Below are positions 1 to 63,874 of a DNA stretch of 64,000 nucleotides, piece by piece. Both the position numbers and the translations under genes were made by a program. The notes under the pieces are model-generated. The model was not told where the DNA came from and searched no databases. It was given only the letters and a program-made list of their open reading frames with translations. Positions within the stretch are counted from its first letter, which is position 1. Every line of letters starts with the position of its first letter. This DNA is from a virus: IMG/VR virus record IMGVR_UViG_3300008120_000061, positions 1 to 64,000 of that record; one strand, written 5' to 3'.

Positions 1-579
1 ACTTCTGTTGAAAGAATTGTTGAAGAATTTAAACAAATACATAAAAAGAACAAAGTAGTGGTATTTCAGCCTTATGGAAGTACTATGTCAATTTCCAACA
101 ATAGACCGTATGATATTTCTAATAGAAGTTTAGACGTTGACGACTATTTAAAGATCGGAAAGTTTTTAAACGATAAAGACTGTCTAATCTTCTTCTTTGG
201 TAACAGAGAACTCAAACATCCTGGAGATAACTTTAGTGCAGATCTAACTAACTTTAACCCTGAGCTAAGAATGTACATGTCGTTAATAAGTGAATGTGAT
301 TACTTTGTAGGATGCGACAGTGTAGGTCAGCATATGGCTAGAGCGTTTGACAAACCTGGCTCTATATTCATGGGTAGTACGTTTGAAAAGAATGTAAGTT
401 ATCCAGATCATTTTAAGTTTTTTAGAAAACAAGGGCAAACTCCAGTTTATAGTCCTATTCGTCTTGGTGGAGTAGAATCAGACTTTACAGATAGATTGAA
501 CGACGGGATCATGAACTTTTCTGCTAATGAAATCAACGAGTTTTGCCAGATAATACTTAAAGACATATATGATGAATAG
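1..579 (+). CDS. Glycosyltransferase, GT9/heptosyltransferase-like (GT-B C-terminal half; 5' partial)
   Basis: Frame open from base 1; VVFQPYGS and FVGCDSVGQHMARAFDKP match the GT9-type DS(G/V)xxHxAxA motif; upstream of hldD/hldC. Confidence 0.65.
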   Translation, partial: TSVERIVEEFKQIHKKNKVVVFQPYGSTMSISNNRPYDISNRSLDVDDYLKIGKFLNDKDCLIFFFGNRELKHPGDNFSADLTNFNPELRMYMSLISECDYFVGCDSVGQHMARAFDKPGSIFMGSTFEKNVSYPDHFKFFRKQGQTPVYSPIRLGGVESDFTDRLNDGIMNFSANEINEFCQIILKDIYDE

Positions 580-590
580 TGAGAAGATAA

Positions 591-1136
591 ATGACTAATA
601 CAAATTTTTCTGTAAATCGATCTGTAATTAATTATATACATGCAAGAGACTACTTTCCAAAAGATGAAGTAGAACAGCTTCGCCCACTTGTACAAGACGT
701 GCACTGGGTAGATAAAAAGTTTGGTAAAGAGATGGCACACTTCAATCTCATCTTTAACGATATTGATCTTGTAATCGGTAAGATGGTTGGCGATATAGTT
801 GAGATAGACAGACCCTCATCAGGAACTCTTCGTAGAACAATAAATGAAGTAATACACTTCGAAGATTTTGAAGACTTAAATGATTGGAGATTTGTTGTTT
901 CACTTGAAGAAAATGAATTTAAGACATATATACACAAAGATGGGTATAAAAGCGTTCTTGATTTTATTAAAGATGAACAGAGTCAAGATAAAGAGCTCGA
1001 TTATATCAATAAAGATGATTGGGAAGTAGAAACATCAATAAAAATGAAACCAAACGATGTTTTATTCTATCGTCCATGGATATTCCACTCATTTCAAGAT
1101 GGCATACTCCATTACTACAAGCTAAAAGTGTTGTGA
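591..1136 (+). CDS. Putative 2OG-Fe(II) oxygenase-like protein (DUF6445-like)
   Basis: IHFED (HxD/E-like) and C-terminal MKPNDVLFYRPWIFHS pattern of phage DSBH oxygenases. Confidence 0.45.
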   Translation: MTNTNFSVNRSVINYIHARDYFPKDEVEQLRPLVQDVHWVDKKFGKEMAHFNLIFNDIDLVIGKMVGDIVEIDRPSSGTLRRTINEVIHFEDFEDLNDWRFVVSLEENEFKTYIHKDGYKSVLDFIKDEQSQDKELDYINKDDWEVETSIKMKPNDVLFYRPWIFHSFQDGILHYYKLKVL

Positions 1137-1138
1137 AA

Positions 1139-1888
1139 ATGAAAATATTAGTTACTGGTGCAAGCGGGTTCATAGGTCAGAATTTAGTAAAAAAACTACC
1201 AACTGATTGGGATATAATTAAGTTTGATATTAAAGATTATCCAGATACTCGTCCAAAGCATTTAAGCTTTAACAATATCAATTGGGTCATACACTTAGGA
1301 GCGTTAAGTTCTACCACCGAAAAAGATGCTAAAAGAGTGATGGATTTAAATCTTGCGTGGTCTATAGAACTTGCAGAGGAATGTGAAAAACATAATGTAA
1401 ACCTACAATGGTCTTCATCCGCGTCTGTATATGGAAATAAATATAAATGTGCAGTTGATGAAAATAAAGCTGCACAACCTCTCAATCTATACGCTATGAG
1501 CAAATATTTTTTTGAAGAGTATATGAAACTAAAATCTTATGAATTTACATGGCAAGGATTTCGTTATTTCAACGTATATGGACCACATGAAGAACATAAG
1601 GGATCTCAGGCAAGTCCTTATACTCAATTTTCAAAACAAGCTAGTGAGACTGGTGTTATTCGAGTGTTCGAAGGCTCTGAGAATTATAAAAGAGACTTTG
1701 TGCATGTTGATTATGTAGTAGATACTCATGTTAAGATGATACAAAAAAAAGAAAGTGGAATTTTTAATTTAGGAACTGGGTCTACTCGTAGTTTTCTTGA
1801 TGTGGCTAAAGAAATTGCTACTATCCACAATGCTAGAATTGAGACGATACCGTTTCCTGAAATAATATATAGAACTAGGTTAAAATAG
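1139..1888 (+). CDS. hldD: ADP-L-glycero-D-manno-heptose 6-epimerase; C-terminus appears shortened
   Basis: TGASGFIG, SSSASVYG, PLNLYAMSK (YxxxK), FRYFNVYGPHEEHKGSQAS, FEGSENYKRDFVHV; start reassigned to ATG 1139 (or GTG 1133). Confidence 0.88.
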   Translation: MKILVTGASGFIGQNLVKKLPTDWDIIKFDIKDYPDTRPKHLSFNNINWVIHLGALSSTTEKDAKRVMDLNLAWSIELAEECEKHNVNLQWSSSASVYGNKYKCAVDENKAAQPLNLYAMSKYFFEEYMKLKSYEFTWQGFRYFNVYGPHEEHKGSQASPYTQFSKQASETGVIRVFEGSENYKRDFVHVDYVVDTHVKMIQKKESGIFNLGTGSTRSFLDVAKEIATIHNARIETIPFPEIIYRTRLK

Positions 1889-1951
1889 TCTGTAATTGAT
1901 GATTATCTATCAATATAGTAACTCATGTCCACTACTTTTTTAAAAATTATT

Positions 1952-1980
1952 TTGACTAAACAATATAAATTAGTTAAAAT
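1952..1980 (+). promoter_or_regulatory. Sigma70-type promoter
   Basis: TTGACT-17 nt-TAAAAT with A/T-rich upstream tract. Confidence 0.75.
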
Positions 1981-2015
1981 TATTATAAGGGTAAAGCACC
2001 CAGCGAGAGAATATA

Positions 2016-2432
2016 ATGACCAAAGTTTTTGTTAACGGCACTTTTGATATTATACATTCTGGTCATCTATACTTATTAAGCTACGCTAAAAGGTTAGGTG
2101 ACCATTTACTTGTAGCGCTAGATAGTGACGACAGAATTCGATCTAAAAAAGGCGATTCTCGACCTGTAAATAATGCAAATACTAGAATCCATATTATGTC
2201 TAGTTTTAAATTTGTTGATGGCGTTAACATGTTTAATAGCGACGATGAATTAGTTCGTATTATACAAAACTACTCTCCTGATATAATGGTGGTCGGATCT
2301 GATTGGCGCAATAAACCAGTTATAGGCAGTGAATACGCAAAACAGTTAATATTCTTTGATAGAATAGAAGATTTATCTACTACTAATACGTTAAATAAGT
2401 ACTTGAGTAGTATAAGAGAGAATAATATATGA
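2016..2432 (+). CDS. hldC: Heptose-1-phosphate nucleotidyltransferase (HldE domain II / HldC / RfaE2)
   Basis: NGTFDIIHSGH (HIGH motif), LVALDSD, KGDSRPVN, VVGSDW, C-terminal STT. Confidence 0.8.
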   Translation: MTKVFVNGTFDIIHSGHLYLLSYAKRLGDHLLVALDSDDRIRSKKGDSRPVNNANTRIHIMSSFKFVDGVNMFNSDDELVRIIQNYSPDIMVVGSDWRNKPVIGSEYAKQLIFFDRIEDLSTTNTLNKYLSSIRENNI

Positions 2433-5032
2433 GTAATACCTTTTCAACTCCTTCAGTAGTTACTACTATATCACAAAGTAGATTAGACTATAACGAGGCT
2501 TTGTTATCACTACTACAAAATTTTGCTAGTGCTGGACAGCCTTCTGGCGCAGAAATAAATTCTGATGGAACTACTGGACTGCGTACCGGTATGTTCTGGT
2601 ATAAAAGCGGAGCTGATACTGCTGACGGTCAAGGCCGTATGCTAGTATACAATGGTGCAGAATTTACTAGAAACGGTTTAGCAGTTTATAAAATGCCTAG
2701 TTTAGTTGCCGCTAATGCGGCAGCAGTAGCTACTAAAATTTCTTACGGCGAACTAGTATCTGTAGGTAGTGACGCACTGTATATGGTAAATGCTGCTAAT
2801 AACGGCGTATTTCAAGTTGGTGGAGATGCTATAACTCTTTCTGGTTTGACATCTGGTCAATTTGTTCGTACAGATACAAGCTCTACTATAACAGGCAATG
2901 TAACTTTTAGTGGGACTGGTTTTGTTAAACTGCCTCTAGGTAACGATTCTCAGCGACCTGGAACTCCTGCTCCTGGTATGCTTAGATTTAGTAATACTAG
3001 TGGGTCTTTTGAAGGTTATGACGGAACTGAGTGGGGTGAAATTGGCGGTGGCGGAGCATTTACAGATGACGGCACCTATGTGTTCTATACCGGCTCAGCT
3101 AACGTAGGTATAGGAGTTGCAGCACCGCAAGCTAATCTTCATATTAAAGGCACTGGAAATGTGCTAAGACTTGAAACTGGTACACTAACTGATGCTAATG
3201 GTGTAGCTATTAGATTTCAACAAAGTGATACTACTATTACAAATGGACAAGGTTATGGAGCTATTGAATGGTCTGGCGCCGATACAGGTAATGATGGAGT
3301 TCGTGGTTATATAAAAGGAGTTGCTGAAGGCGATACTGGCGAGTTTGCAGTTAGAATAGGTACTCAATCATCAGGTGCTAGTGCTCCAACCGATAGAATT
3401 ACTGTAGACAGTGCTGGCAGGGTAGGTATTGGTACAGTCTCACCAAACGTAACACTACAAGTAGCTGGTAACGTTCATTTATCTGGAGGTGATGCTACAA
3501 TATTCAATAGAAGCAATAATTATTTAGCTTTAGGAGCTAACAATATTGAGGCTATTAGAATACTTCCTAATACTAATATTGGCATAGGAGTTACAGCTCC
3601 GACTGCCAATCTTCATATTGCCGGTACAGGTTCTGTACTTAAGTTACAAACTGCCACAGCTACTGATAGCACTGGAGTTAGTTTACAGTTAGTTCAAACT
3701 GACACTACTATAATTTCTGGTCAAGGATATGGTGGAGTTGAATGGTTTGGTCTTGACGCATCTGGTACTGGAGTGCGCGGTTATGTAAAAGGCTTTGCAG
3801 AAGGCGATAGCGGAGAGTTTGGTATTAGGATTGCTACACAAGCTACTGGTATTAGTTCTCCTGTAGATCGAGTTTATGTATCTAATACAGGTAGCGTTGG
3901 TATAGGAGTTGCTGCTCCAACGTCTACACTAGATGTAAATGGCGCTGTTACTGCCTTGTTATATTCTGGAGATGGTGGAGGTTTAAGCAATCTAGTAAAT
4001 GCTTATGCTAATGACGGAGTTACGCTAGCAACTGCACGCGGTAATGACCATGCAACGCTACTTAGTGCTCAGTCTAATGACTATGCTACTTATCTTACTC
4101 TTTCAGCTAACGATGGAGTTACGATAGCAACTGCACGAGGAAACGACCATACCACACTTCTTAGTGCTCAGTCTAATGACTTTGCTACCTTTAACTTTGC
4201 TAGATCTAATGACTACGCTACTTTGCTTAGCGCTCAAAGCAATGACGGAGCTACCTTACTTACAGCTCGTTCTAATGATTGGGCTACGCTACTATCAGCT
4301 CAAAGCAATGATGGAGCTACACTACTAACAGCACGCTCTAACGACTGGGCTACCTATACCACATTAGCTGCTAACGATTATAACACTTTATTAAGTGCAT
4401 ACAGCAATGATTTAGTTACTCTAAATTCAGCTCGTGCTAACGATTTAGTTACTTTTAACTCAGCTCGTGCTAATGACTATAGTACATATACCACTTTAGT
4501 AACTACTATAAATGATTTAGATGCTAGATTCTTGCGTAGTAATGCAGCGGCTATTAAAGCTACTGGTGATCTAAAACTAAATGATAACATTCAGCTTAAT
4601 ATAGGTACTGATAACGACGTTGAACATTATTTTAATGGAACTGATTATTATACTGATATTAATGTAGGAGCTAATTGGTTCTTAAGAGATGGTGATAGCG
4701 CTAATGCTACACGATTTACTTTTGATATAGATACCGGTAACTTTACTGCTACAGGGGATGTAGCAGCATTCTCAGATGCTAGACTAAAATCAAATATACA
4801 CACATATCAAAACGCTTTAGCTACTGTACAACAACTACGAGGAGTTAGGTATGAAAGAAATAACAAATTTAATATTGGTGTTATAGCTCAAGAAGTTCAG
4901 GCTATCCTACCTGAAGTAGTTAATACTGATAATGAATACTTAGCTGTAGCCTATGGAAATATCATTGCAGTATTAATTGAAGCAATAAAAGAACTAAGCT
5001 TAAAGATTGAAAAGTTAGAAAAAGGTAAGTAA
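2429..5032 (+). CDS. Tail fibre with C-terminal peptidase S74 intramolecular chaperone
   Basis: GMLRFSN..FEGYDG..W, VGIG...P repeats, AFSDARLKSNI cleavage motif, GVIAQEV, terminal coiled coil. Confidence 0.85.
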   Translation: MSNTFSTPSVVTTISQSRLDYNEALLSLLQNFASAGQPSGAEINSDGTTGLRTGMFWYKSGADTADGQGRMLVYNGAEFTRNGLAVYKMPSLVAANAAAVATKISYGELVSVGSDALYMVNAANNGVFQVGGDAITLSGLTSGQFVRTDTSSTITGNVTFSGTGFVKLPLGNDSQRPGTPAPGMLRFSNTSGSFEGYDGTEWGEIGGGGAFTDDGTYVFYTGSANVGIGVAAPQANLHIKGTGNVLRLETGTLTDANGVAIRFQQSDTTITNGQGYGAIEWSGADTGNDGVRGYIKGVAEGDTGEFAVRIGTQSSGASAPTDRITVDSAGRVGIGTVSPNVTLQVAGNVHLSGGDATIFNRSNNYLALGANNIEAIRILPNTNIGIGVTAPTANLHIAGTGSVLKLQTATATDSTGVSLQLVQTDTTIISGQGYGGVEWFGLDASGTGVRGYVKGFAEGDSGEFGIRIATQATGISSPVDRVYVSNTGSVGIGVAAPTSTLDVNGAVTALLYSGDGGGLSNLVNAYANDGVTLATARGNDHATLLSAQSNDYATYLTLSANDGVTIATARGNDHTTLLSAQSNDFATFNFARSNDYATLLSAQSNDGATLLTARSNDWATLLSAQSNDGATLLTARSNDWATYTTLAANDYNTLLSAYSNDLVTLNSARANDLVTFNSARANDYSTYTTLVTTINDLDARFLRSNAAAIKATGDLKLNDNIQLNIGTDNDVEHYFNGTDYYTDINVGANWFLRDGDSANATRFTFDIDTGNFTATGDVAAFSDARLKSNIHTYQNALATVQQLRGVRYERNNKFNIGVIAQEVQAILPEVVNTDNEYLAVAYGNIIAVLIEAIKELSLKIEKLEKGK
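4007..4501 (+). repeat. 15 tandem 33-nt (11-aa) repeats, [SAG]NDxxTxxxxx
   Basis: ANDGVTLATAR/GNDHATLLSAQ/SNDYATYLTLS ... ANDYSTYTTLV, counted in the translation. Confidence 0.9.
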
Positions 5033-5034
5033 TA

Positions 5035-6633
5035 ATGGTTTTACAAGCAAGCGGGCTAATAAGCTTATCAAATATAAAATCAGAATTTAATGGTATAGAC
5101 CCTGTAGAGCTTAGCGATTACTATAGAGGAGGCGTATATGTACCAGATCTTCCTTTGAATGCTAACGTACCTACGAGTGGCACTATTAACGTACGAAATT
5201 TTTATGGATCTACACTATCTACATTCAATATTAGTCCTAATGTTAGCACCGTAAACGAAGGGGAAACTGTAAGATTTAATGTAACTAGCACTAATTTTTC
5301 TGGCACGCTATACTGGTCTATATTGGGCGGCGTTACAAATTCGGATTTTAGTAGTCCAGCAAGTGCTGTAACCTCTGGTGGAACTCTAACTATTTCTGAA
5401 AATTCAGGACTGCTAGATCTTACTACTAGCTCTGATAGAACTACAGAAGGTTCCGAATCTTTCTCTGTGCGTTTAAAAGCTCTTTCTACATCCGGCCCAG
5501 TAGTAACTCAATCTTCCAACGTATTTATAAACGATACTAGCTTAAATCCGTTCTATGTAACTCTGGCAACAAGCCAATCACCTATAATAGGTCCAAATAG
5601 TGTTAACTTTACACTTATTGGTAATAGTATTCCAAACGGTAGAACTGTTGGATATACTATAACTGGAATACGAATTCCTAATGATACTAATGCAGCATCA
5701 TTGTCAGGTACATTTACTATGTCTAGTAATACAGCTACAGTATCTCTGCCTTTAAATAGTATTATGGGAGAACTGTTTGTAGTAGATATTAACCCGTTGG
5801 CAGATGTTCAATCATATGATGCTAATATTAGTTTACAGACTACTAGAATACCAAGAAGACAACAGTTTCAGAATATATCAAATAGCCAGTTCGTATATAT
5901 GTTTTGGAAACCAGATGGTACTAGCTTATTCTTAGCTAACACTCTTAAAGATAGCGTTGATCAGTATAACCTGTCAAGACCTTTCGATACAACAAGCGCT
6001 ACTATAACTACAGCTAATGCTAAAGCTTTACCCAGTGCTATTACTGCTCCGTTAGGTATGTATATATCTAGCGGCGGTACTAATCTACTTATTATGGATT
6101 CTGTAGATAAACGAATATATAGAATGTCCATAGGCACTGCATGGAATATAAGCACACTTAGTGCTACTACCTTTGCATCTCCTGTACTTCCTTTAGTTAC
6201 CTATAGAGGCTTAGAGTTAAGCGCTAATGGTATTCTTTATTTTGTTTGTGCAGTATCTACTGGAAGTGTTAATGTATTTAAAGGTACTACAGCGTTTAGA
6301 CCAGATACTATGAGTACTACTCTTATAGAAGACTTTAACCCTCCTGAACCCAGTACACCCACTAGCATAAGATTCAATAGCACAGGTACAGCAATGTATT
6401 TAGCTGATCAAAGTCCTAATGTAAGTTTTTATACTTTAAGTACTCCTTATACCTTAAGTACTGCTACTCTTGTACACACCCAGAGCTTTAGTGCCTTTGC
6501 AGGTGGCTTACAAATTTCAGACGTATATTGGAATAACGTAATATCTAGAACTGCAACGATTACTACAGCCCTTTCAGATTCTGGTGGTACTAGTACTGGA
6601 CCTAAGAGCAATTCTGTCGTTATTACAATATAA
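5035..6633 (+). CDS. Putative fibre-tip adhesin / receptor-binding protein (fibre-docking N-terminus, Calx-beta-like domain, probable beta-propeller)
   Basis: SGLISLSNIKSEF..LSDYYRGG..PTSGTINVRNFYG; VNEGETVRF..TTEGSESF; WKPDGTSLF and FNSTGTAMY blade-like repeats; follows the S74 fibre. Confidence 0.6.
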   Translation: MVLQASGLISLSNIKSEFNGIDPVELSDYYRGGVYVPDLPLNANVPTSGTINVRNFYGSTLSTFNISPNVSTVNEGETVRFNVTSTNFSGTLYWSILGGVTNSDFSSPASAVTSGGTLTISENSGLLDLTTSSDRTTEGSESFSVRLKALSTSGPVVTQSSNVFINDTSLNPFYVTLATSQSPIIGPNSVNFTLIGNSIPNGRTVGYTITGIRIPNDTNAASLSGTFTMSSNTATVSLPLNSIMGELFVVDINPLADVQSYDANISLQTTRIPRRQQFQNISNSQFVYMFWKPDGTSLFLANTLKDSVDQYNLSRPFDTTSATITTANAKALPSAITAPLGMYISSGGTNLLIMDSVDKRIYRMSIGTAWNISTLSATTFASPVLPLVTYRGLELSANGILYFVCAVSTGSVNVFKGTTAFRPDTMSTTLIEDFNPPEPSTPTSIRFNSTGTAMYLADQSPNVSFYTLSTPYTLSTATLVHTQSFSAFAGGLQISDVYWNNVISRTATITTALSDSGGTSTGPKSNSVVITI

Positions 6634-6642
6634 AGGAATACA

Positions 6643-7926
6643 ATGACTAACAATTATTTTAAGGTACCAGTAGACAAACTAGTATCACGACTACCCGATA
6701 AGTACGGATTTAAAGAGCTTAACATTAGCCAACAAGCTATGATGGATGGTCTTTCAACTAAACGAAACTGGGTTCATATATCAGCTCGTCGTACTGGTAA
6801 GTCTAGTGGTGCTGCTGTGCTAGCGCTAGCAAAACTGCTAGAGCCTAACCAGCAAGTAATTGTTGTTGCGCCTGACTTTAACCTTAGCTCTATTATTTGG
6901 GATTTTACTACCGAATTGATTGAAGCGTTTAATATTGAAACAAAGCGTTTCAATCTAAAAGATCGTGTTGTAAAACTTGTAAATGATAGCACTCTAAGAC
7001 TGCTGTCAGCTAATAATAGAAGCTCACTAGTTGGTCGTGCTGCTAACTTACTAATTGTAGACGAAGCTGCACTTATTCCAGACGATGAATATTTTACTAG
7101 AGATCTTCGCCCTGCGCTATCAACCTTCCCAGATTCTCGTGCACTATTTATTTCTACTCCTCGAGGTAAGGAAAACTATCTATATAACTACTATTTACGC
7201 GGTCAAGATGAAAGCTTTCCTGAATGGGGTAGCGGACTATTTCCTTGGCACGCTAATCCTAGACTTACACAAGAAGATATTGAGCAGGCTAGACGAGCTA
7301 TTCCTGAATCGCTATTCAGACAAGAATATTATTGCGAATGGGCTACTTTTGAAGGTCAGATTTATAAACTAGACGAAAATGACCATCTAAAAGATCTTAC
7401 TAGTGAATCAGCTGCTTTCAAAATTACTCCAGGTGATTCTCGATTTACATTTATAGCAGGTCTTGACATGGGGTATAGAGACGCTACAGCCTTTGTAGTA
7501 TTAGCTACTGATGGCAGTACATGGTTTGTTGTAGATGAATATATTGCTGAAGAGGGCACTACTAGTCAACATGCGGAAGTAATTAAGTCTATGGTTGAGT
7601 TATGGGATATCGAAAATATATTTATTGACTCTGCTGCCCAACAAACTAAAGCAGATTTAGTATACGATTATGATATTGCTTGTGAAAATGCTATTAAAAG
7701 TGTTAATGACGGTATAGCTCATGTGCAAAGTCTTATTGAACAAGATAAAATTATATTTGATATTGGTAATGCCTCTCACACCTTTAAAAGTATGACAGCT
7801 TATCGCTGGAATTCTAGAACTGAAAAGTCAAAACCTGTTCACGATTGGACTTCTCACTGCTGTGATGCTGTGCGCTATGCTATATATACATACACTAAAA
7901 ATAGTGCTATTAGTATCTATGCCTAG
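6643..7926 (+). CDS. terL: Terminase large subunit (T5-like)
   Basis: Walker A SARRTGKS, Walker B LLIVDEAA, ISTPRG, GLDMG, HCCDAVRY. Confidence 0.95.
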   Translation: MTNNYFKVPVDKLVSRLPDKYGFKELNISQQAMMDGLSTKRNWVHISARRTGKSSGAAVLALAKLLEPNQQVIVVAPDFNLSSIIWDFTTELIEAFNIETKRFNLKDRVVKLVNDSTLRLLSANNRSSLVGRAANLLIVDEAALIPDDEYFTRDLRPALSTFPDSRALFISTPRGKENYLYNYYLRGQDESFPEWGSGLFPWHANPRLTQEDIEQARRAIPESLFRQEYYCEWATFEGQIYKLDENDHLKDLTSESAAFKITPGDSRFTFIAGLDMGYRDATAFVVLATDGSTWFVVDEYIAEEGTTSQHAEVIKSMVELWDIENIFIDSAAQQTKADLVYDYDIACENAIKSVNDGIAHVQSLIEQDKIIFDIGNASHTFKSMTAYRWNSRTEKSKPVHDWTSHCCDAVRYAIYTYTKNSAISIYA

Positions 7927-9642: not shown

Positions 9643-9655
9643 GGAGCAAGCAAAT

Positions 9656-12304: not shown

Positions 12305-13021
12305 ATGCTTAAACATCATATATGCCATATCCACTGCTTAGATCATCCTAGTGTATTTAAAGTAGTATCATATGCTGCTAAATATAAAAAACTATTTAAC
12401 GGCGTAAAAATTGCCACTCTAATAAAAGTAACTCCAGAATCTGATATTTACGAAAGAGTGTATTCTATATTAACAAAGCTAGGATACGAAATTGTTACAG
12501 TACAGAATACACCTCTTAGAGAGGTAGGTCATTTTTTTAATACTAGCCTACCTATATTACTATCTAAAACATCAGAAGGGGTAGTATATTACAACCATTC
12601 TAAAGGTATTTCATATCATCCAGATTCAGAAGACGGCATAGCCACTACTCTTTGGACAGATGTTTTATATCACTACACGCTAGATTGCGCTGATAAATTT
12701 CCTTTTGAAGATAAACGATATAAAACTTTTGGATCTTGTATTATTAAAAATAAAAACTTTCTAGAGCCAAAGACTCTAGGTGAAGAGTATAGCTACTTAG
12801 GAACATTTTTCTGGATCAAGATAGAAGATCTAGCTACTAAGAAGTTTAACCCAGAACTATCTGTATTTTACCTAGAGGCTCTGCCGGGCTTAGTTAGTAA
12901 GAGCACTCAGGCTTTTAATTTGGGTCCAACCTTTAGTAAATTTGAAAGCCCATATAAGTTAGAATCTTGGGAGAAGAAAGGTATAAATTTTGGATTTCCA
13001 AACAAAAATAATGCTAATTGA
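12305..13021 (+). CDS. Putative glycosyltransferase-like protein (RgpF/rhamnan synthesis F-like)
   Basis: REVGH, YYNHSKG and GTFFWIK motifs, as in YxHxKG...G(N/T)F(W/F)W viral glycan proteins. Confidence 0.45.
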   Translation: MLKHHICHIHCLDHPSVFKVVSYAAKYKKLFNGVKIATLIKVTPESDIYERVYSILTKLGYEIVTVQNTPLREVGHFFNTSLPILLSKTSEGVVYYNHSKGISYHPDSEDGIATTLWTDVLYHYTLDCADKFPFEDKRYKTFGSCIIKNKNFLEPKTLGEEYSYLGTFFWIKIEDLATKKFNPELSVFYLEALPGLVSKSTQAFNLGPTFSKFESPYKLESWEKKGINFGFPNKNNAN

Positions 13022-49946: not shown

Positions 49947-49973
49947 AATATAATTTTAAATAGCATTAGTCAA
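49945..49973 (-). promoter_or_regulatory. Sigma70-type promoter overlapping the adjacent start codon
   Basis: TTGACT-17 nt-TATTAT. Confidence 0.5.
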
Positions 49974-55684: not shown

Positions 55685-55713
55685 ATAATATTACAGATTT
55701 AAGCATTCGTCAA
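55685..55713 (-). promoter_or_regulatory. Sigma70-type promoter for pol
   Basis: TTGACG-17 nt-TATTAT. Confidence 0.75.
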
Positions 55714-56601
55714 ATATAAATTATCTTCAATATTGCCTAAAAAGTGTTCAGCTATTTCTTTATTGAAACTACCTGGATCTAAACCATCAGTAAGAACAAT
55801 ATTATTGGTTTCTATATTTCTTTGTTCTAGTAGCTTTTCAATCTTAGCTGCCGCTTGTTTACCCGCAGAGTCGCCATCCATTAGTATGGTGACTTTTCTA
55901 CATCCATATTCATCTAGTAGTTTAGCCTTTTGAGCTGTAAAGTTTTGGGTGCCAAAGATACATAGGCTATTTGTATATCCTAAATCATGCAGTTTTAGCA
56001 CATCAAATAATCCTTCTACTAAGATTACATGTGAGAAGTCCGCTATTCTATCTAAGGGAAATAGAATATCACTCACAGATACTCCGGCTGGTTTTCTTAA
56101 ATATTTAGGCATACTAATAGAGCTGCTAAGAACTTTGTATCTGCCTTCTATGAATTTTAGTTTTTTGTGTTGATATATAGGTATGCAAGCATAATCACTC
56201 AACCCATTAGAGTCTGTGAAGAAAGCTCCAAAGTCTTTTAGAGTTTTTGCTCTAATACCTTTAAAATCATGACTCAAAGCAATTGTTGGCTCAGGCAGCC
56301 TAACCTCTCCTTGATATCTGATGTTATCTAGTTTATTCTTTAGCTTTTTTATTTTAAAAGACATTTTAGATGCAATTTGAAATGTGCTTTTAATTCCTAG
56401 CCCTTCCAAGAATTGTTGAGTATTTCCTCTATGTCCACATGCAAAGCAATGAAATACATTCTTTTCTAGATTTAGAGAAAGACTAGGATTAGAATCGACG
56501 TGCAAACCACTAAAACATCTTACAGTTAGTTCAGTAGGCTTATTAGGATTAACAACATAATCAATGCTGTTATCCTTTAGCACGTCTTCCATATTATCCA
56601 T
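55699..56601 (-). CDS. DNA primase (zinc finger + TOPRIM)
   Basis: CFSGLHVDSNPS..HCFACG; VEGLFD; MDGDSAG; DPG. Confidence 0.92.
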   Translation of the reverse strand: MDNMEDVLKDNSIDYVVNPNKPTELTVRCFSGLHVDSNPSLSLNLEKNVFHCFACGHRGNTQQFLEGLGIKSTFQIASKMSFKIKKLKNKLDNIRYQGEVRLPEPTIALSHDFKGIRAKTLKDFGAFFTDSNGLSDYACIPIYQHKKLKFIEGRYKVLSSSISMPKYLRKPAGVSVSDILFPLDRIADFSHVILVEGLFDVLKLHDLGYTNSLCIFGTQNFTAQKAKLLDEYGCRKVTILMDGDSAGKQAAAKIEKLLEQRNIETNNIVLTDGLDPGSFNKEIAEHFLGNIEDNLYLTNA

Positions 56602-56971
56602 TCTGATTATCTCCAGGCATCACTCTAAAGTTATCTTCTGCTGAATCTGCAGTACTAACTTCAATAATCTCACTATCATCTTCTAAAGCTATTAGCTGAT
56701 GCACTTGTAGAGGCATAATTCTGATAGAATCTCCAGTGCGAAGAGTCTGCTCAATGATACTGCCATTTTCAGTATTAATAAGTTTTAATGTGAATAATCC
56801 TTTTTGCACATACCATGTTTCATCTTTTTTATGGTGAAAGTGCATTGAAAACTTATTCCCAACTTTGTTAAAGTGAAGTATCTTTCCACAATATAAATCA
56901 TTAGTGGCAAAGATATACTCATACCCCCATCCCTTAGGAATATGACCGCTAAACCTCGTTACGCTTGACAT
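56594..56971 (-). CDS. Cupin, sugar-phosphate isomerase-like
   Basis: PKGWGYE, SMHFHHKKDETWYV, VHQL, EVST. Confidence 0.75.
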   Translation of the reverse strand: MSSVTRFSGHIPKGWGYEYIFATNDLYCGKILHFNKVGNKFSMHFHHKKDETWYVQKGLFTLKLINTENGSIIEQTLRTGDSIRIMPLQVHQLIALEDDSEIIEVSTADSAEDNFRVMPGDNQNG

Positions 56972-57818
56972 AAGCTGTTCCTTTCTTTGTTACAGCTATT
57001 GCAGATACTTTAGTAGCAAATTCAATAGCTTTGTTTATCGTATTATTTTCATATAAAGAAGATGCCAGTGCTGCTAGAAAACTATCTCCAGCTCCCGTAA
57101 CATCTATTGCTTTAACAGAAAATGCAGAATACTCTTTATATAATCCTTTTTTAGTGGCAGTTACGCAACCCTCAGATCCTTTAGTTACTATGAGATTATC
57201 TACATTTAGTGCCTTTGCTGACTCTATTAGTAATTCTCTTGTAATAGTTGTTTCATTTGTCCAATCTAAAAATTCTTTTAAATTAGGTTTAAGTACGAAT
57301 GTATTTTTATATTTATCTAGATCTTTCTTAGGGTCTACTAATACTGGAATCTTTAATTCTACAGCAGCTTTAATAATACCATTAGGATTTATAATACTAC
57401 CCTTATTATAATCGCTTAGAACTATTATACTAGGTCTATTTTCTAGTACTTTATTAGCTAGTTGATTAGTATCACATTTTATGCTATCATCATAGTCTAT
57501 TCTAGATATATAAGCTCCATTACTATACAGTCTTACTTTAGTAATATCACTATCTGCATAATTTACTACGCTATCATAAGTTAACTGTTCTTCTTCTAAT
57601 AGCTTTGCTAAGATAGATTTATTACTAGTAAGGGCAGTAAATAGTTTTACCGGACTTCCTAAGTATTTTATGTTTAAAGCTGTATTACCAGCTCCACCTA
57701 GTTTATTTATAGTTTCATATACACTAACTACCGGGGCAGTATCGCACTCAGGAGACATACGAACACTGCTACCCAGCAGATATTTATCTAACATAATATC
57801 TCCAATAACTGCTATCAC
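56949..57818 (-). CDS. hldA: Heptose-7-phosphate kinase (HldE domain I / HldA / RfaE1; PfkB family)
   Basis: VIGDIMLDKY..RMSPE..PV, LGGAGN, LSDYNKG, VDPK, KPNLKEF, DVTGAGD; GTG start overlaps the helicase stop. Confidence 0.88.
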   Translation of the reverse strand: MIAVIGDIMLDKYLLGSSVRMSPECDTAPVVSVYETINKLGGAGNTALNIKYLGSPVKLFTALTSNKSILAKLLEEEQLTYDSVVNYADSDITKVRLYSNGAYISRIDYDDSIKCDTNQLANKVLENRPSIIVLSDYNKGSIINPNGIIKAAVELKIPVLVDPKKDLDKYKNTFVLKPNLKEFLDWTNETTITRELLIESAKALNVDNLIVTKGSEGCVTATKKGLYKEYSAFSVKAIDVTGAGDSFLAALASSLYENNTINKAIEFATKVSAIAVTKKGTAYVKRNEV

Positions 57819-59191
57819 CCTAGATCACCTGCAAATTCTTTCTCATCATTTCCATATTTATTTAGTATCTTACCTTCTATAACTTTACTGCTTTCAGGTA
57901 CGATTTTTAGACATTCCCAATCCATGTGTACATTAAACTTCATGGATTTACCGTTACGAATCTTAGTAATTTCAAAAGGTAGAATACTTGGATCTTCGTT
58001 TAAATCTGCTGGCGTAAATCTAAAGCTGCGATCCGCAGAGTCAAGAACCCCTTTAGCAAATCTAGCTTCACCGCTAGCATCAATCTGATACGGAGAAACC
58101 ATCATAACTTTATACTTACGGCTAAGAGTTTTTAACTGGTCAGCAATGGCGATCTGGGATTTCCAATCCATTCTATCTTCTACTTTAACAATGTTAAGAT
58201 AGTCGATTACGCACATTTTTACATCATACTTTTTAGTCATAAGATTTAGATAGTGGTCAATCTTAGCTAAAGATAGATTAACATCATCTACAATATGGAA
58301 ACGCTTATCTTTAAACTTAGCTTTACCAGTTTTCAGCCCATAGTCAAACTCTTTTAGATTACCAGTTTTTAACAGATTAGCATACAGATCAGAAGCTTCT
58401 TCTGTAGCCTCATAGAATGTATCTAGTTTAGTTTTAGCTAACAACAGCTTATCAGTATTTGTTAGCTCGTTTTTAATGAATTTCATAAACGACACACCAG
58501 ACAGCATACTCATTAGTCGATAGTACACTTCAACATAACGCATCTCAATACTCATAAAGAGTACTGAGTTATTATTGCTTTCAAACTGATGTTTAGCTGT
58601 ATTGAGTGTGATAATAGACTTACCACTACCCCTACGACCTCCAAACATTATAAGCTCTTCTAAACCAAATCCACCGTTAGTAGCGTCGTACTCAGTAGAC
58701 AAGCCACTTGAATACATAATAAATTGTTCTTCACCTAAGAAAGAATCAATTGTTGCAACGTCAAATAGTTCCTCGCCTTCTGGCAGGAACTTATGTAGTT
58801 CTAGAATATGATTTTGTATACTATCAATTATTTCAATACGTTCTAGGTGTTCGAGCTGATCCATAAACTTATCTAGCCAGTTTATAGTTTCTTCCCTAAT
58901 AAAATAGTCTTGTAATTGGTCTGCAATAAATTGACTAGATAGATACTGTTCTTCAGGAGTATCTACATAGATCTGAGAAGATAAGTAGTCTTTAATATTC
59001 TCAATCTTCTGAGACTCGTAAAACTCTTGCATAGTGGGTATGCGCATATTCTTTTCGTAAAATTTAACAATCTTACGAAATATGATTAGATTAGTGTCGT
59101 TAAAAAACTTACTAACTAGCTTGTTATAAAAATCTGTACTCTGCGTAGACAATAACCTACGCAGAGCAATTTTTTGTATATCTACAGTCAT
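57815..59191 (-). CDS. Replicative DnaB-like helicase (T5 D6-like)
   Basis: GGRRGSGKS, SIEM, IDYLN, PYQIDASGEARFAKGVLDSAD, TKIRN. Confidence 0.92.
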   Translation of the reverse strand: MTVDIQKIALRRLLSTQSTDFYNKLVSKFFNDTNLIIFRKIVKFYEKNMRIPTMQEFYESQKIENIKDYLSSQIYVDTPEEQYLSSQFIADQLQDYFIREETINWLDKFMDQLEHLERIEIIDSIQNHILELHKFLPEGEELFDVATIDSFLGEEQFIMYSSGLSTEYDATNGGFGLEELIMFGGRRGSGKSIITLNTAKHQFESNNNSVLFMSIEMRYVEVYYRLMSMLSGVSFMKFIKNELTNTDKLLLAKTKLDTFYEATEEASDLYANLLKTGNLKEFDYGLKTGKAKFKDKRFHIVDDVNLSLAKIDHYLNLMTKKYDVKMCVIDYLNIVKVEDRMDWKSQIAIADQLKTLSRKYKVMMVSPYQIDASGEARFAKGVLDSADRSFRFTPADLNEDPSILPFEITKIRNGKSMKFNVHMDWECLKIVPESSKVIEGKILNKYGNDEKEFAGDLG

Positions 59192-59955
59192 TATTTATTT
59201 ACCACAGGAAATAGCTCTGCTCTGGGAACGAACAGCTTTCTAAACGAGAATTCACTTTCAATCCATACTTCATACGTTTCTCTACCTGTCTCCTCAATTA
59301 ATGTTTCTACTCTTTTTACATGATTTTTTAGCGACTCTAGCTTCCAGCTAGAACCATCTTCTAGCTCCCAATAAATTTGATAATGAATATCAAGCATAGG
59401 CTCATTAAATCTACCGCCCTCTTTCCAAGGAAGTAGCTCAATCCAACGTTGTCTACCTTGTCTAAGAGACTCTGCGTATTCTTCATCAAATACTTTTAGA
59501 ATACTTACAAATGAGTTTTCTGGGCCAGAAAAAGCTCTGTCACCTACTTTAAACTTAATGTCTAGATCTTGAACAATATGTTCTGTTTTAGCTTCTGCAT
59601 TTTTACCTCTAGCTCTTAACGGAACATTAGCTTCCATAAGAACTTTTTTAACTCTAGGTGCAGAAATAAAATAAAGCTTGGCGATAGCTGACTGAGCTTC
59701 GCCATTTAAATAAGACTTAATTATTTCTTTCTTAGTAGCTTCTGTTATTTCAGCGTTTTTTGCTTTCTCTTTGAGCTGCTTTTCACGCTCTTCTTTAGCT
59801 TTAAAATCTTCAATTATTTTATTTAGTCGTGTAGTATTATAATTGATCCCAAGAAAATCACACACAAACTTTTTAGTTTTACCTGTTTTAATATACCATA
59901 TAGCATTTCTAATTTTAGCTTCAGGTATCTCCTCTGTAGTAAGTTTTCGAGCCAT
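59191..59955 (-). CDS. T5-like HTH DNA-binding protein
   Basis: TKKFVCDFLGINYNTTRL and YLNGEAQSAIAKLYFIS HTH-like segments. Confidence 0.55.
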   Translation of the reverse strand: MARKLTTEEIPEAKIRNAIWYIKTGKTKKFVCDFLGINYNTTRLNKIIEDFKAKEEREKQLKEKAKNAEITEATKKEIIKSYLNGEAQSAIAKLYFISAPRVKKVLMEANVPLRARGKNAEAKTEHIVQDLDIKFKVGDRAFSGPENSFVSILKVFDEEYAESLRQGRQRWIELLPWKEGGRFNEPMLDIHYQIYWELEDGSSWKLESLKNHVKRVETLIEETGRETYEVWIESEFSFRKLFVPRAELFPVVNK

Positions 59956-60727
59956 CTATTAATCCTTCAATAGAGTTAAAGTTTTTTATATCTTTATCAT
60001 ACACAACTAGTAAGTTTTTGCCAATTACTTTATTAATATTAATCTTTCTTTCTAAGTTGTCTAAGTAACTTTTACTAGTGCCACCTGCTATTTCTATATA
60101 AACATTTAAGTCTGTTAGGTAAAAATCATATAGTAACTTATAAGGGTTTGGGTATCTAGGTTCATAAATATAAGACACTTTATTACATAAAAATTTATTT
60201 ATAAATTCAAACTCTAAAAGACTTCTACAGTTATTACCATCATCTGCTTGCACGCTTATGCCGTATAGGTTAGTATTTGGATCGTAACCAGCACTTTCAA
60301 TAGCTAAATTCCACGTTTTAAATACTCTTATAAAAGGATTAACACTAGGGTATATACTTTTACTATCATTAAACTCTCTATTAGTAGGAATACGATCATT
60401 ATCTACTACAAAATCATTTATTACACTAATTAGTTCTTCTTTTTTCCATTCTTTAGGTGGGTTTGGTATTACTATATCAAATTTTTTAAAATGATTTCTA
60501 ATGTAAGTCATAGTGCTTTTTAGGTTTGGATACTTGTACCTAATAAAGCTACTAGAATATCCTTTTAAAAATTCTGTAAAGTGTATAGCACCTTCCATAC
60601 TATCAATAAAGTATTCACCTGTTTTCATATGACAGTTTTTTGCATGTTTAGCTACGTGGTGCCAATCAGGAAAATTATATCTTTTTAGACTATTAGTGGT
60701 TATATTGCAGTAAGGACATTTAAACAT
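59921..60727 (-). mobile_element. Free-standing homing endonuclease-like gene (Zn finger + associated repeat + PD-(D/E)XK-type domain)
   Basis: CPYC..H..C; WKKEEL..RIPT..PS..F.TWN.AI..AG; RSLLE..YE..YDFYL..YIEIAG; very AT-rich; own promoter. Confidence 0.65.
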
Positions 60728-60830: not shown

Positions 60831-60833
60831 TTA

Positions 60834-60862: not shown

Positions 60863-60871
60863 GACAAATTT

Positions 60872-61192: not shown

Positions 61193-61207
61193 TATGTTTC
61201 TCAAGGC

Positions 61208-61231: not shown

Positions 61232-61241
61232 TAGGTTAAGA

Positions 61242-61928: not shown

Positions 61929-62002
61929 ATTCTGTTTCCTCTTTATAATAATATGTATTTTTGGTTGGTTGTCATTATGTTGTTTTTCTCAACAACTAAA
62001 GT

Positions 62003-62031
62003 ATCTTAACAAACTTTTTTATGACAAGCAA
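62003..62031 (-). promoter_or_regulatory. Sigma70-type promoter for D5
   Basis: TTGCTT-17 nt-TAAGAT; leader starts with hairpin GTTGTT-GAGAAA-AACAAC. Confidence 0.7.
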
Positions 62032-62100
62032 GAGAAATATTACTTTTAGTCACTCTCGTCTTATATAGTCATTTGATACTTTTGTTATTTCGATAAAATA

Positions 62101-62129
62101 AATATAACTCTTTTCAACACGGTATGCAA
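62101..62129 (-). promoter_or_regulatory. Second, upstream sigma70-type promoter
   Basis: TTGCAT-17 nt-TATATT. Confidence 0.5.
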
Positions 62130-62137
62130 ATGTAATT

Positions 62138-62458
62138 TTACTTTAAATTACCGCTTTCCTGGATTTTAAGTTTTATGCCATCTACCACCTTCTCCAGGTT
62201 AGACTTTTTAGTAAGATTTAAGCCTTCAATTTCTATGCCTAGTATATTTTCTAGTTCAATAACCATACTCTTTACACTTCTTTTGCTAGTCTTTTCATCT
62301 TCTGGCTTTTTGTATATTTTTAGCTGTACTAACTTACTGATAATACTTCTAGTCTTTTTTCCAAAATGCTCTGCAATATCTTCTATATCTAGTTCATCTT
62401 CAGTGTATAGCTTGATTAGCTCTACTTCTTCTTCGTCATTCCAAGCTTTACCGTTCAT
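62138..62458 (-). CDS. Small HTH/Myb-like DNA-binding protein
   Basis: WNDEEE..IEDIAEHFGKKTRSIISKL. Confidence 0.65.
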   Translation of the reverse strand: MNGKAWNDEEEVELIKLYTEDELDIEDIAEHFGKKTRSIISKLVQLKIYKKPEDEKTSKRSVKSMVIELENILGIEIEGLNLTKKSNLEKVVDGIKLKIQESGNLK

Positions 62459-62763
62459 TTAATTTCTTCCTCGTCTGGTTTATTTACAATCCGATCTACT
62501 TTTTTTCTCCATAAATCAGTTATTAATTCTGATGCGTCACTTAGTAGATGCACCCAAGTATCTATATGCTCTTCAGTGACTGAAATTCCATTTGTAGTTC
62601 TTAACCACTCACCAGTATCCCCATCTTGATAATACTCTCTGGTGTGTACTCTAACTACCCCTCTCCACTTATTAACCGTAACCTTTATCGCTCTGTTCAC
62701 GCCTTTTTGTGGAGGTAAATCGCAAATAAATCCTAAATCATATTCTTCATCACTATCAGACAT
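62455..62763 (-). CDS. PC4-like ssDNA-binding protein
   Basis: VTVNKWRG..VHTREYYQD..GEWLRTTNGISV. Confidence 0.82.
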   Translation of the reverse strand: MSDSDEEYDLGFICDLPPQKGVNRAIKVTVNKWRGVVRVHTREYYQDGDTGEWLRTTNGISVTEEHIDTWVHLLSDASELITDLWRKKVDRIVNKPDEEEIK

Positions 62764-63874
62764 GCTTACTCCTAACTGTACTAGAAGCGTTTGAAATTTT
62801 AGTCACAACTTCATAGTACTTATTACCAACTTCCGTCCAAGTATTTAATAACGATGTATCTACTGATATAGTTTTTAAGTTATTAATAACATAGTGAAGT
62901 TGTTTAGCTAGATCATTTGCGTCTGGTTCTAGCACCCATTTATGACCGCCCATTTGTGTCATTGCGTCTTCTGCTTTTAGACCAAAAATTTCATACATAT
63001 TTACTATTCGTTTAGAGCTAGCAATCTTAAAGTCTTTTACAAACTCATCAGTAGGTCCGCCGAAAGTTACTATAGGTACACATCCACAGGCCATAGCTTC
63101 CTGTACGTGCATACCAAAACCTTCACCTCTATAAGGATGAACTAGTACGTGCGCTTGTTTGTATAGCGCAGCCATTTCTTCTTCACTTCTAACACTATCA
63201 TCATATATAATATCTGCACATTTAGTTTTGTATTGCAGCTTTACAATATCTTCTTGAGTGTTAGACGCTCCATAAACTTGTGGAGTATCTTTAATAATTA
63301 GTTGAACTGGTGTACCTTGTTTAGTTATTTGACTCCATACACTCAGTAGTATGTCTAATCCTTTTCTAAATTGGTGACAACCTACATACAGTACTGTAAT
63401 TTTAGTGTTGTCTTTAGTGTTTGGTTTATTAAATATATCTGGATTGTATCCATTAGGAATAGAGACTACTCTTTGAGGATTAATCCCACTATTTAAATAT
63501 ACTTCTCTTGTCCATTCACTAGGAGTTATTAGCAAATCTGCAAATGTCTCAAATTTGTATTGCCACTCAAAAGGAACAGCCATGTATTCCCAAGGCTGAA
63601 TAAAAACAATTTTTGTGTTATTACCAACGGGCCAACGCCACATTGGAGGATAGGTATGCCTAATCTGAACATCAACACTATCGAGTGGTTTATTAACCAA
63701 GCTAGATATAGTTTGAGCATCGATTTTAGATAACTTATGGTCTGATGAATAGGTGTCGAGCGCAGAAATTGATAAGTTAACTTTATCTTTAAGCTGCAAA
63801 GCAATATTTCTATTTACAATAGACAGTGAATGGTTGTCAAACACTTTGCCGATTAGTTCTACATTAATTGCCAT
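62756..63874 (-). CDS. GT4 (GT-B) glycosyltransferase
   Basis: RKGLDILL, HPYRGEGFGMHVQEAMACG (EX7E). Confidence 0.9.
   Translation of the reverse strand: MAINVELIGKVFDNHSLSIVNRNIALQLKDKVNLSISALDTYSSDHKLSKIDAQTISSLVNKPLDSVDVQIRHTYPPMWRWPVGNNTKIVFIQPWEYMAVPFEWQYKFETFADLLITPSEWTREVYLNSGINPQRVVSIPNGYNPDIFNKPNTKDNTKITVLYVGCHQFRKGLDILLSVWSQITKQGTPVQLIIKDTPQVYGASNTQEDIVKLQYKTKCADIIYDDSVRSEEEMAALYKQAHVLVHPYRGEGFGMHVQEAMACGCVPIVTFGGPTDEFVKDFKIASSKRIVNMYEIFGLKAEDAMTQMGGHKWVLEPDANDLAKQLHYVINNLKTISVDTSLLNTWTEVGNKYYEVVTKISNASSTVRSKHV

Follow-up and report, generated by a model that had tools for sequence, protein, structure and literature searches.

A split and partly eroded viral heptose cassette in a freshwater siphophage distantly related to T5

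RESULTS

A heptose cassette in two places of one phage genome

We analysed a 64,000-nucleotide stretch of viral DNA (hereafter the window), which comprises bases 1-64000 of one 75,941-bp linear IMG/VR virus contig (IMGVR_UViG_3300008120_000061), and observed that it carries a split, partly eroded copy of a four-gene heptose cassette that is common in aquatic viruses. The four genes encode an HldA-like kinase, an HldC-like adenylyltransferase, an HldD-like epimerase and a metal-binding cupin, and they share the contig with about eight sugar-transferring enzymes, three of which are GT9-like. The heptose system is not peculiar to this phage. Our best explanation as a whole is that a T5-like siphophage uses the split cassette and its set of glycosyltransferases (GTs) for the chemistry proposed below, with the virion as the likeliest acceptor, and we give this account slightly more than an even chance.

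A search with an alignment of the cupin matched at least 570 viral stretches, and we counted the cassette genes in the best 80 of them. Within 5 kb of the cupin, HldA was found at 75 of the 80 loci, HldC at 75 and HldD at 74. All four genes stood on one strand within 2.1-3.7 kb at 72 loci, and the order HldA-HldC-HldD-cupin was seen at 66. In the window, HldD and HldC lie at 1139-2432 (+) and HldA and the cupin at 56594-57818 (-), ∼54 kb apart. Compared with the cassette copies, the window genes are 55-62% (cupin), 37-49% (HldD, in most loci), 33-52% (HldC) and 28-35% (HldA) identical. Homologues of the cupin also adjoin HldA in unrelated viral contigs, precede an HldA-HldC fusion in a giant-virus metagenome-assembled genome, and turn up in contigs that were assigned by binning to several lineages of bacteria and archaea.

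Among cultured phages the cupin was found in 36 records, all of them cyanomyophages or marine single-cell viruses, and the cupin-bearing phage records are essentially the phages with HldA. In P-SSM2, S-CAM1 and S-SSM7 the cluster contains, in this order, genes for a GT9-like protein, a carbamoyltransferase, HldC, HldA, a protein of 107-114 amino acids (aa), the cupin and HldD. In P-SSM2 and S-CAM1 it is followed within one or two genes by a tail-fibre gene; in S-SSM7 the genes that follow are one labelled 'minor coat protein' and those of the head-tail region. Phage heptose genes have already been annotated for years, in cyanophages as well as in pelagimyophages. The small cluster protein is called 'phosphoheptose isomerase' in RefSeq (P-SSM2, L173 4652-4996; S-CAM1, L172 4691-5014; S-SSM7, L175 12055-12390), and the cyanophage cupin 'cysteine dioxygenase'; both labels look wrong. 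We considered whether the former might be a GmhA coexisting with the cupin and rejected it, as the P-SSM2 (114 aa) and S-CAM1 (107 aa) proteins have the DxDGT motif of the haloacid dehalogenase (HAD) superfamily and no similarity to real GmhA.

The kinase, adenylyltransferase and epimerase

The sequence-only reading of the window had named HldD, HldC and HldA, and in profile searches each of them had the corresponding family as its best match. The HldA-like heptose-7-phosphate kinase of the pfkB type (56949-57818, -) matched TIGR02198 as its best family, at full length and with 198 bits, as compared with 85 bits for ribokinase; PfkB scored 124 bits and the GAGD motif is present. Its open reading frame (ORF) sits between the DnaB-like helicase gene and the primase region and overlaps both neighbours. 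The HldC-like heptose-1-phosphate adenylyltransferase (2016-2432, +), which has the HxGH motif, matched TIGR02199 best (110 bits; a glycerol-3-phosphate cytidylyltransferase family, 70 bits). The HldD-like protein (1139-1888, +) is a short-chain dehydrogenase/reductase (SDR) of the ADP-heptose 6-epimerase type, with TIGR02197 as the best family (210 bits) and with YxxxK and HKGSQAS motifs.

The HldD-like protein is truncated at its C-terminus. It has 249 aa as compared with 266-272 aa in viral homologues, and it lacks the segment ...PFP(D/E)xLKGQYQxYTxAD... that is conserved in 74 of these homologues; instead, it ends with PFPE and eight unrelated residues. In what follows, G000 denotes the contig of the window, G001 and G002 two close relatives (85-95% protein identity), and G075 and G076 further relatives. 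The closest relative of the window HldD, from G075 (L264), is 81% identical and full length, and DNA homology to it stops abruptly near window position 1860. The 3′ end of the HldD gene is thus a recombination junction near position 1860. In GalE-type epimerases the segment equivalent to the lost tail contacts the substrate nucleotide. By analogy, the truncated HldD may be impaired, and the donor may be left as ADP-D,D-heptose.

A 181-aa protein (orf591; 591-1136, +), encoded between the GT9-like gene at the contig start and HldD, is 93% identical over 123 aa to the product of a cassette-flanking gene of the same G075 locus (L264); it had no Pfam, NCBIfam or PHROG match. The G075 counterparts of orf591 (93%) and HldD (81%) stand 4.6 kb apart there, and the other G075 identities are much lower (HldC 56%, cupin 57%, HldA 31%). 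G075 and G076 share only orf591 and HldD with the window at high identity. The HldD/orf591 region is therefore a mosaic.

We also observed that HldA (56949-57818; L003 10001-10894 in G002) is only 56% identical between the window phage and G002, whereas its neighbours are close (helicase 95%, cupin 84%, primase 88%), so that the HldA allele looks as if it had been replaced by recombination. Stretches of the primase, cupin, HldA and helicase genes (window 55700-58200) are represented among contigs of 150-250 nt from river and estuary metatranscriptomes; these contigs are mostly identical to the window, and two differ at 2-4 positions. The matches over HldA may reflect transcription or DNA carry-over, and are a weak hint of presence.

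The cupin and the first steps of the pathway

The cupin (125 aa; 56594-56971, -) is our candidate for a sedoheptulose-7-phosphate isomerase. Its membership in the set, as first read from the letters, was confirmed by a Cupin_2 match above cut-off (29.6 bits). Against Lyx_isomer (PF07385) it scored 26.7 bits (cut-off 20.8), with no single stretch significant alone, and against MannoseP_isomer (PF01050) 18.9 bits, which is below 23.6; a homologue (L007) reached 35 bits against Lyx_isomer. All of 32 sequences compared share the metal ligands H43, H45, E50 and H90. A Foldseek search with its AlphaFold2 model (pLDDT 94) lists the isomerases 7nzp, 7zvy (small T. kodakarensis phosphomannose isomerase, PMI) and 3mpb. 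Sequence searches of the PDB with the cupin, and also with the TPR-GT and GT-A proteins described below, gave marginal matches only. Type-II PMI and D-lyxose isomerase convert ketoses to aldoses of the manno configuration, and GmhA carries out the same type of reaction.

The enzymes otherwise expected at these steps were not found. GmhA and GmhB had been noted as absent from the window, and this held for the rest of the 75.9-kb contig, where neither a SIS domain (PF13580) nor a GmhB-type HAD (TIGR01656) was matched at E ≤ 1. The SIS domain was likewise absent at E ≤ 0.1 from G001, G002, G075 and G076, and G000 has no homologue of the cyanophage mini-HAD and no ORF with a DxDGT motif. A SIS-type GmhA is rare in phage records overall, and was seen in one of the 36 cupin-bearing phage records, where the match is weak. 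GmhA was detected in 14 of 61 sampled Cyanobiaceae genomes, and therefore many cyanophage hosts could not supply the first intermediate. Moreover, the five pathway steps can each be matched to a gene of the cyanophage clusters only on the assumption that the cupin acts as the isomerase.

From these data, we conclude that the cupin probably replaces GmhA as the sedoheptulose-7-phosphate isomerase. We found no paper describing a cupin as a non-orthologous substitute of GmhA. A role as an RmlC-type epimerase, for which the high rank of the Zn-binding CapF epimerase cupin in the fold search speaks, is not favoured in view of the invariant His/His/Glu/His metal site. We also tried the stricter proposition that cupin and GmhA are always complementary and abandoned it, as several viral contigs with HldA have neither; these presumably rely on the host.

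Glycosyltransferases and their possible acceptors

The ORF at 1-579 (+) encodes only the C-terminal 192 aa of a GT9-like glycosyltransferase, as its 5′ end is cut by the contig start. It belongs to phrog_8954 (E = 1.4e-39) and is 38-39% identical to P-SSM2 gp307 and S-CAM1 gp222, both of which lie in the cyanophage heptose clusters. The GT9 assignment made from the letters did not pass the cut-off of PF01075 (16.5 bits; cut-off 22), as is also the case for P-SSM2 gp307 (15.4 bits), and a relative in G009 gave no PF01075 match. It was upheld by structure: a model (pLDDT 78) of L174, a full-length relative (40% identical), had as its top Foldseek matches 3tov (Veillonella GT9), TibC, WaaC and WaaF (E = 2e-8 to 1e-6; TM ∼0.5), and the family is predicted to have the GT-B fold of GT9. 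The phrog_8954 family accompanies the cassette in 23 of 26 phage records, and it is this co-occurrence only that suggests ADP-heptose as the possible donor of these enzymes.

The second GT9-like protein (558 aa; 49966-51642, -), encoded after a helicase gene, is a fusion with tetratricopeptide repeats (TPR). It has TPR_2 and TPR_1 matches and a GLGD motif; a direct PF01075 match is absent and WaaF (1psw) is a weak match. Its C-terminal 304 aa had 4612 homologues, and most among the matches listed carry PF01075 and TPR, in agreement with the earlier assignment as a TPR-GT. The third GT9-like gene lies beyond the window at genome 65551-66531 and was assigned from Atlas features and structure (TM 0.66-0.70 to GT9 clusters).

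The gene at 47969-48862 (-), between the genes of the single-stranded DNA-binding protein (SSB) and a Mre11-like protein, had been read as a GT-A enzyme. Its match to Anp1 (PF03452) is weak and below cut-off (21 bits), and similarity to GlfT2 and A197 is weak as well. DAD and EDY motifs are present, and the 6914 homologues, some of them named 'GT2 family glycosyltransferase' by the Joint Genome Institute (JGI), form a large, well conserved metagenomic family, so that the protein is best called GT-A-fold glycosyltransferase-like. The GT4 glycosyltransferase (62756-63874, -) is secure with 67.9 bits against PF00534; it also matches PF20706 (35.2 bits). Next to it the 3′ end of a GT2-like gene (63864-64000, -; genome 63864-64697) runs off the window; it scores 22.5 bits against PF13704, below cut-off, and is 88% identical in G002. 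The sugar cluster that begins with the GT4 gene continues past the window to genome position 69338 with GT2-like, GT-A-like and GT9-like genes, a GalE-like SDR and two methyltransferases. A further gene, 12305-13021, had been read as RgpF-like. It had no Pfam, NCBIfam or PHROG match, its Atlas neighbours are viral DUF8361 proteins, and we dropped it from the set.

What do these enzymes modify? Our best single guess, held at somewhat less than an even chance, is that the acceptors would be virion proteins, especially the tail fibres. The phrog_8954 GT9-like gene adjoins tail-fibre or structural genes in the window phage, P-SSM2 and S-CAM1, it lies beside a gene for a tail-chaperone-domain protein in G009, and it stands by tail-fibre or structural genes at 80 of 80 IMG/VR loci. 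The virion as acceptor gains support from this recurring adjacency in unrelated phages. TPR repeats usually bind proteins, and the TPR-GT9 fusion points to a protein partner. TibC, which is among the top fold matches of the GT9-like family, is a protein O-heptosyltransferase. The candidate acceptors directly follow the late pathway genes: the HldC stop overlaps by 4 nt the start of the gene for an 867-aa tail fibre protein (2429-5032, +; many PHROG tail-fibre families, E down to 4e-29), and the next gene encodes a 532-aa protein with 27% Ser+Thr (5035-6633, +), whose only match is phrog_30374 (function unknown). Ser, Thr and Asn make up 25-35% of the tail proteins, as compared with 15-20% of the replication proteins. 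The sequence-only reading had placed pathway genes beside both fibre and capsid genes. The fibre side of this claim stands, with HldD and HldC; the capsid side was the unsupported 'RgpF-like' gene, and therefore one of the two positional arguments for the virion falls.

The same glycosyltransferases could instead act on the host envelope, changing the lipopolysaccharide (LPS) core, O-chain or capsule so that superinfection or the adsorption of progeny to debris is blocked. This is the usual reading in marine myophages, and such a role was proposed for rfaE and glycosyltransferases of pelagimyophages (PMC7029224); G002 has curli genes, as pelagimyophages do. GT9 enzymes are known to act on LPS cores, the top fold matches include WaaC and WaaF, most of the sugar genes lie in the early replication operon, and the cluster at genome 62.7-69.3 kb (GT4, GT2, GT9, epimerase, methyltransferases) resembles an O-antigen cluster. 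However, among the ORFs scanned we saw no initiating transferase, flippase, polymerase or ABC exporter. HldC and the GT9-like gene are joined to the tail-fibre gene, and the TPR fusion suggests a protein rather than a lipid partner. Cyanophages also carry the cassette though 47 of the 61 sampled Cyanobiaceae genomes lack GmhA, which suggests that their hosts do not use heptose. We regard envelope modification as a serious rival of virion glycosylation, unlikely as it is on balance.

DNA is another conceivable acceptor, with heptose or a larger glycan placed on a modified base as a protection from restriction. HldA, the cupin, the TPR-GT9 and the GT-A-like gene are inside the replication operon, and the GT4 protein scores above the threshold of PF20706, 'GT4 in conflict systems'. 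However, a ThyA-like hydroxymethylase (PF00303), a TET/JBP dioxygenase (PF12851) and a C5-cytosine methyltransferase (PF00145) had no match in G000, G001 or G002, an ordinary ThyX is present, and no GT9 enzyme is known to act on DNA. A precedent exists in heptose and di-heptose on 5-hydroxymethylcytosine (5hmC), made by a phage cluster with a HAD/kinase fusion, a cytidylyltransferase and a GT-B enzyme, and the EDY motif of the window GT-A resembles the phage DNA GT-A enzymes of the same study (bioRxiv 10.1101/2023.12.21.572611). We consider DNA hypermodification highly unlikely.

Gene placement and a proposed pathway

We compared the replication region with that of the T5-like phage PSTCR5 and found three insertions in an otherwise identical gene order: HldA with the cupin between helicase and primase, the TPR-GT9 gene after the second helicase, and the GT-A gene between SSB and Mre11, which is absent from PSTCR5 at that place. 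The starts and stops of the inserted genes overlap those of their neighbours. If the T5 programme applies, this placement suggests that the isomerase, the kinase and most of the transferases would be made early, from a T5-type replication operon, and that the adenylyltransferase, the epimerase and one GT9-like protein would be made late, from an operon joined to the tail-fibre gene.

In the pathway that we propose, the cupin would convert sedoheptulose-7-phosphate to D-glycero-D-manno-heptose-7-phosphate in place of GmhA, and HldA, whose family assignment is clear, would phosphorylate C1. As the phage has no GmhB, a host phosphatase is proposed to remove the 7-phosphate. HldC would then make ADP-D,D-heptose, and HldD would convert it to the L,D form; without the conserved C-terminus this last step may be impaired and the donor may stay ADP-D,D-heptose. 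Heptose would be transferred by the three GT9-like enzymes (ORF 1-579, TPR-GT9 49966-51642 and genome 65551-66531), and the GT4, GT2/GT-A enzymes, the GalE-like epimerase and the two methyltransferases could extend and cap the glycan. In its complete version, the proposal is that tail fibres or other proteins of the virion are O-heptosylated by the phage with ADP-heptose of its own making from sedoheptulose-7-phosphate, that the cupin replaces GmhA, and that labour is divided in time, with precursor synthesis and a TPR-guided GT9 enzyme early, and final activation and a second GT9 enzyme co-translated with the fibre. We put this version forward tentatively, and it appears rather doubtful that all of its elements will hold together.

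A number of observations weigh against the explanation given above. HldA, HldC and HldD all score below the NCBIfam equivalog cut-offs (TIGR02198, 345 bits; TIGR02199, 181.5 bits; TIGR02197, 274.6 bits), and therefore the substrates assigned to them are tentative. The truncation of HldD at a junction within a mosaic region means that the pathway may be decaying, and no phosphatase for the GmhB step was found in the searches of G000. The fold search with the cupin was too unspecific to point to one activity, as the isomerases are outranked by quercetinase, the CapF epimerase cupin, KdgF and oxalate decarboxylase. G002 carries a eukaryotic-type phosphomannomutase next to a UDP-glucose/GDP-mannose-type dehydrogenase (L016 7124-8607), and hence in that phage the cupin could simply be a PMI. 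ORF 1-579 is without the N-terminal GD motif seen in classical GT9 enzymes. The 80 IMG/VR loci are probably of one lineage and not independent, and the GT9-like/fibre adjacency may only reflect a region for accessory genes, since the hypervariable host-recognition (fibre) regions of large myophages collect such genes (PMC7029224). The Ser/Thr richness of the tail proteins, which had been called very high, is modest and usual for fibres. Finally, the virion glycan is predicted from genes alone.

Some of these points also fit a phage with no working heptose system, in which the genes are mosaic leftovers or serve another sugar nucleotide, with the cupin as a plain PMI and the kinase and nucleotidyltransferase acting on another sugar phosphate. 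Besides the low scores, the HldD truncation and the phosphomannomutase and sugar dehydrogenase of G002, the splitting of the cassette is in line with this, as is the 56% identity of HldA between phages that are otherwise 85-95% identical. However, all relatives seen keep HldA, HldC and the cupin, and the window copies of these three are intact, catalytic motifs included. The profile scores clearly favour the heptose families (198 versus 85 and 110 versus 70 bits), and three GT9-like genes are in the same genome. The short contigs from RNA libraries that match HldA exactly point in the same direction, weakly, as DNA carry-over is possible. We find the absence of a working heptose system quite improbable.

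Source phage and neighbouring genes

The source is a lytic freshwater siphophage and distant kin of T5. The contig has a CheckV completeness of 71%, which implies a full genome of ∼107 kb, and it has no terminal repeat; the GC content of the window is ∼35%. Metagenomes from lakes, rivers and other fresh waters, of 16 studies in all, contain the same sequence. The first 20 kb of the window had no nucleotide match among 50,697 phage records, and therefore the phage has no close cultured relative. TerL is 40-41% identical to that of T5-like vibriophages and PolA 39-42% to that of T5-like phages that are classified in the Demerecviridae, as PSTCR5 is, or have genomes of a similar size; genomes of this family have about 110-120 kb and long terminal repeats. 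PSTCR5 also shares the gene order of the replication module (helicase, primase, PolA, hypothetical, helicase, SSB, Mre11, Rad50). The earlier label of a T5-like siphophage thus holds at family distance, and the statement that T5 itself has no such gene set extends to all isolated T5-like phages, none of which has an HldA homologue.

A siphophage structural module occupies 1 to ∼40 kb (+) and includes the tail fibre, TerL, portal and a protease-capsid ORF (PHROG), as well as a tail terminator, a major tail protein, two chaperones, and an L-like and a J-like protein. The genes of nucleotide metabolism and replication follow on the - strand between 40 and 69 kb, namely ThyX, the flap endonuclease (FEN), class II ribonucleotide reductase, Rad50/Mre11-like proteins, SSB, helicase, PolA, primase and the DnaB-like helicase. 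G001 and G002 reach 31 kb past the contig end, and neither covers the structural/HldD end; together with G000 they span ∼108 kb, as compared with the estimated 107 kb. A scan of window 1-7000 for promoters and terminators gave nothing above shuffled controls, and we therefore derive no operon boundaries from it.

Some other genes of the window are worth recording. The ORF in the tape-measure position (18493-30192, +; 3899 aa) is flanked by the two tail chaperone genes on one side and the distal tail genes on the other, and could not be assigned convincingly to any Pfam family. The T5 tape measure protein pb2 is about one third as long, and 3899 aa at ∼1.5 Å per residue would imply a tail of ∼0.6 µm. 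A single 867-aa ORF (9626-12229, +) encodes both prohead protease and major capsid protein; in it the PHROG protease families match residues 24-246 and the capsid families residues 306-843. An ORF with the homing-endonuclease-associated HNH_repeat (59921-60727, -) has no counterpart in the otherwise collinear G002 and has probably arrived as a mobile insertion. The GT4 gene is directly followed by the gene for a protein with a PC4-like single-stranded DNA-binding transcription-coactivator domain (62455-62763, -), and then one for a Myb-like DNA-binding protein (62138-62458, -); the former is only 49% identical to its G002 counterpart, and the latter 95%.

Beyond the contig end, G002 carries in a row genes for CsgG, a curlin-repeat protein, a FecR-domain protein and a CHASE2-adenylate/guanylate cyclase (L015 8507-12954). 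The same locus has dUTPase/dCTP-deaminase-like, 2OG-Fe(II) oxygenase and cytidylyltransferase-like genes (L015 2490-4086) and, elsewhere, genes for a GT2 enzyme, a PhyH dioxygenase and a polysaccharide deacetylase.

DISCUSSION

The sequence-only reading proposed that the phage builds its own activated heptose and a multi-sugar glycan. Most of the pathway genes and many glycosyltransferases, an unusually rich set within a T5-type genome, are indeed there; GmhA and GmhB are not, HldD is truncated, and the pathway genes turn out to be a split copy of a common cassette. As a rule, heptose genes of phages are classed as 'LPS auxiliary metabolic genes' with no test of this role. The present case indicates that the cassette is not tied to large myophages and has entered a T5-type siphophage, and its splitting and wiring into early and late transcription units argue that it serves the phage's own programme. 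It is also a further case in which GmhA is absent and a conserved metal cupin is present, and it supports a non-orthologous first heptose enzyme that would be widespread in viruses.

The recurrence of GT9-like genes by fibre genes and the TPR-fused GT9 domain point to heptosylation of proteins, possibly those of the virion. If true, virion heptosylation would affect host recognition, virion stability and the way in which phages are recognised. It would be the first protein heptosylation outside bacterial autotransporter adhesins, and it could apply to many cassette-bearing aquatic viruses. As the cultured cyanophages P-SSM2 and S-CAM1 carry homologous genes, the question is testable.

With the bacterial pathway to ADP-L-glycero-beta-D-manno-heptose (GmhA, HldA/HldE-I, GmhB, HldC/HldE-II, HldD) the phage shares the pfkB kinase, the adenylyltransferase of cytidylyltransferase fold, the SDR epimerase and the GT9-like transferases. 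It differs in having neither a SIS-type GmhA nor GmhB and in having a cupin where the isomerase is needed. Moreover, its HldA and HldC are separate genes, its HldD is short and truncated, and the genes are in two places of the genome. The DNA hypermodification clusters (bioRxiv 10.1101/2023.12.21.572611) have in common with it a nucleotidyltransferase and a glycosyltransferase with a heptose donor, near replication genes. However, they are always accompanied by a pair of 5hmC-making enzymes and by a transferase resembling the T4 beta-GT, and 5hmC-making enzymes were not found in G000-G002.

The closest parallels for the modification of virion proteins are found in other systems. In mycobacteriophages, phage glycosyltransferases were shown to decorate capsid and tail proteins (Freeman et al. 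2023, as cited in PMC12801897). Their GT families and hosts are different and they are not known to have heptose-type genes for sugar-nucleotide synthesis, whereas the window phage is known from its genes only. The TibC/AAH autotransporter heptosyltransferases place heptose on protein serines, and ADP-heptose is the donor of TibC (PDB 4rb4 title). They have the GT-B fold of the GT9 type in common with the phage family, TibC chains taking Foldseek ranks 3-10 at ∼12% sequence identity.

Among phages, the pelagimyophages with rfaE-type genes share glycosyltransferases with the window phage, and the curli genes reported in them are shared with its relative G002 (PMC7029224). The T4-like cyanophages P-SSM2, S-CAM1 and S-SSM7 are the nearest, with homologous HldA, HldC, HldD, cupin and phrog_8954 GT9-like genes by their tail-fibre genes. 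In contrast to both groups, the window phage is a freshwater T5-like siphophage in which the cassette is split between early and late regions. As compared with the cyanophages, it has no small HAD and no carbamoyltransferase, and it has in addition the TPR-GT9 fusion and a second GT9-like gene.

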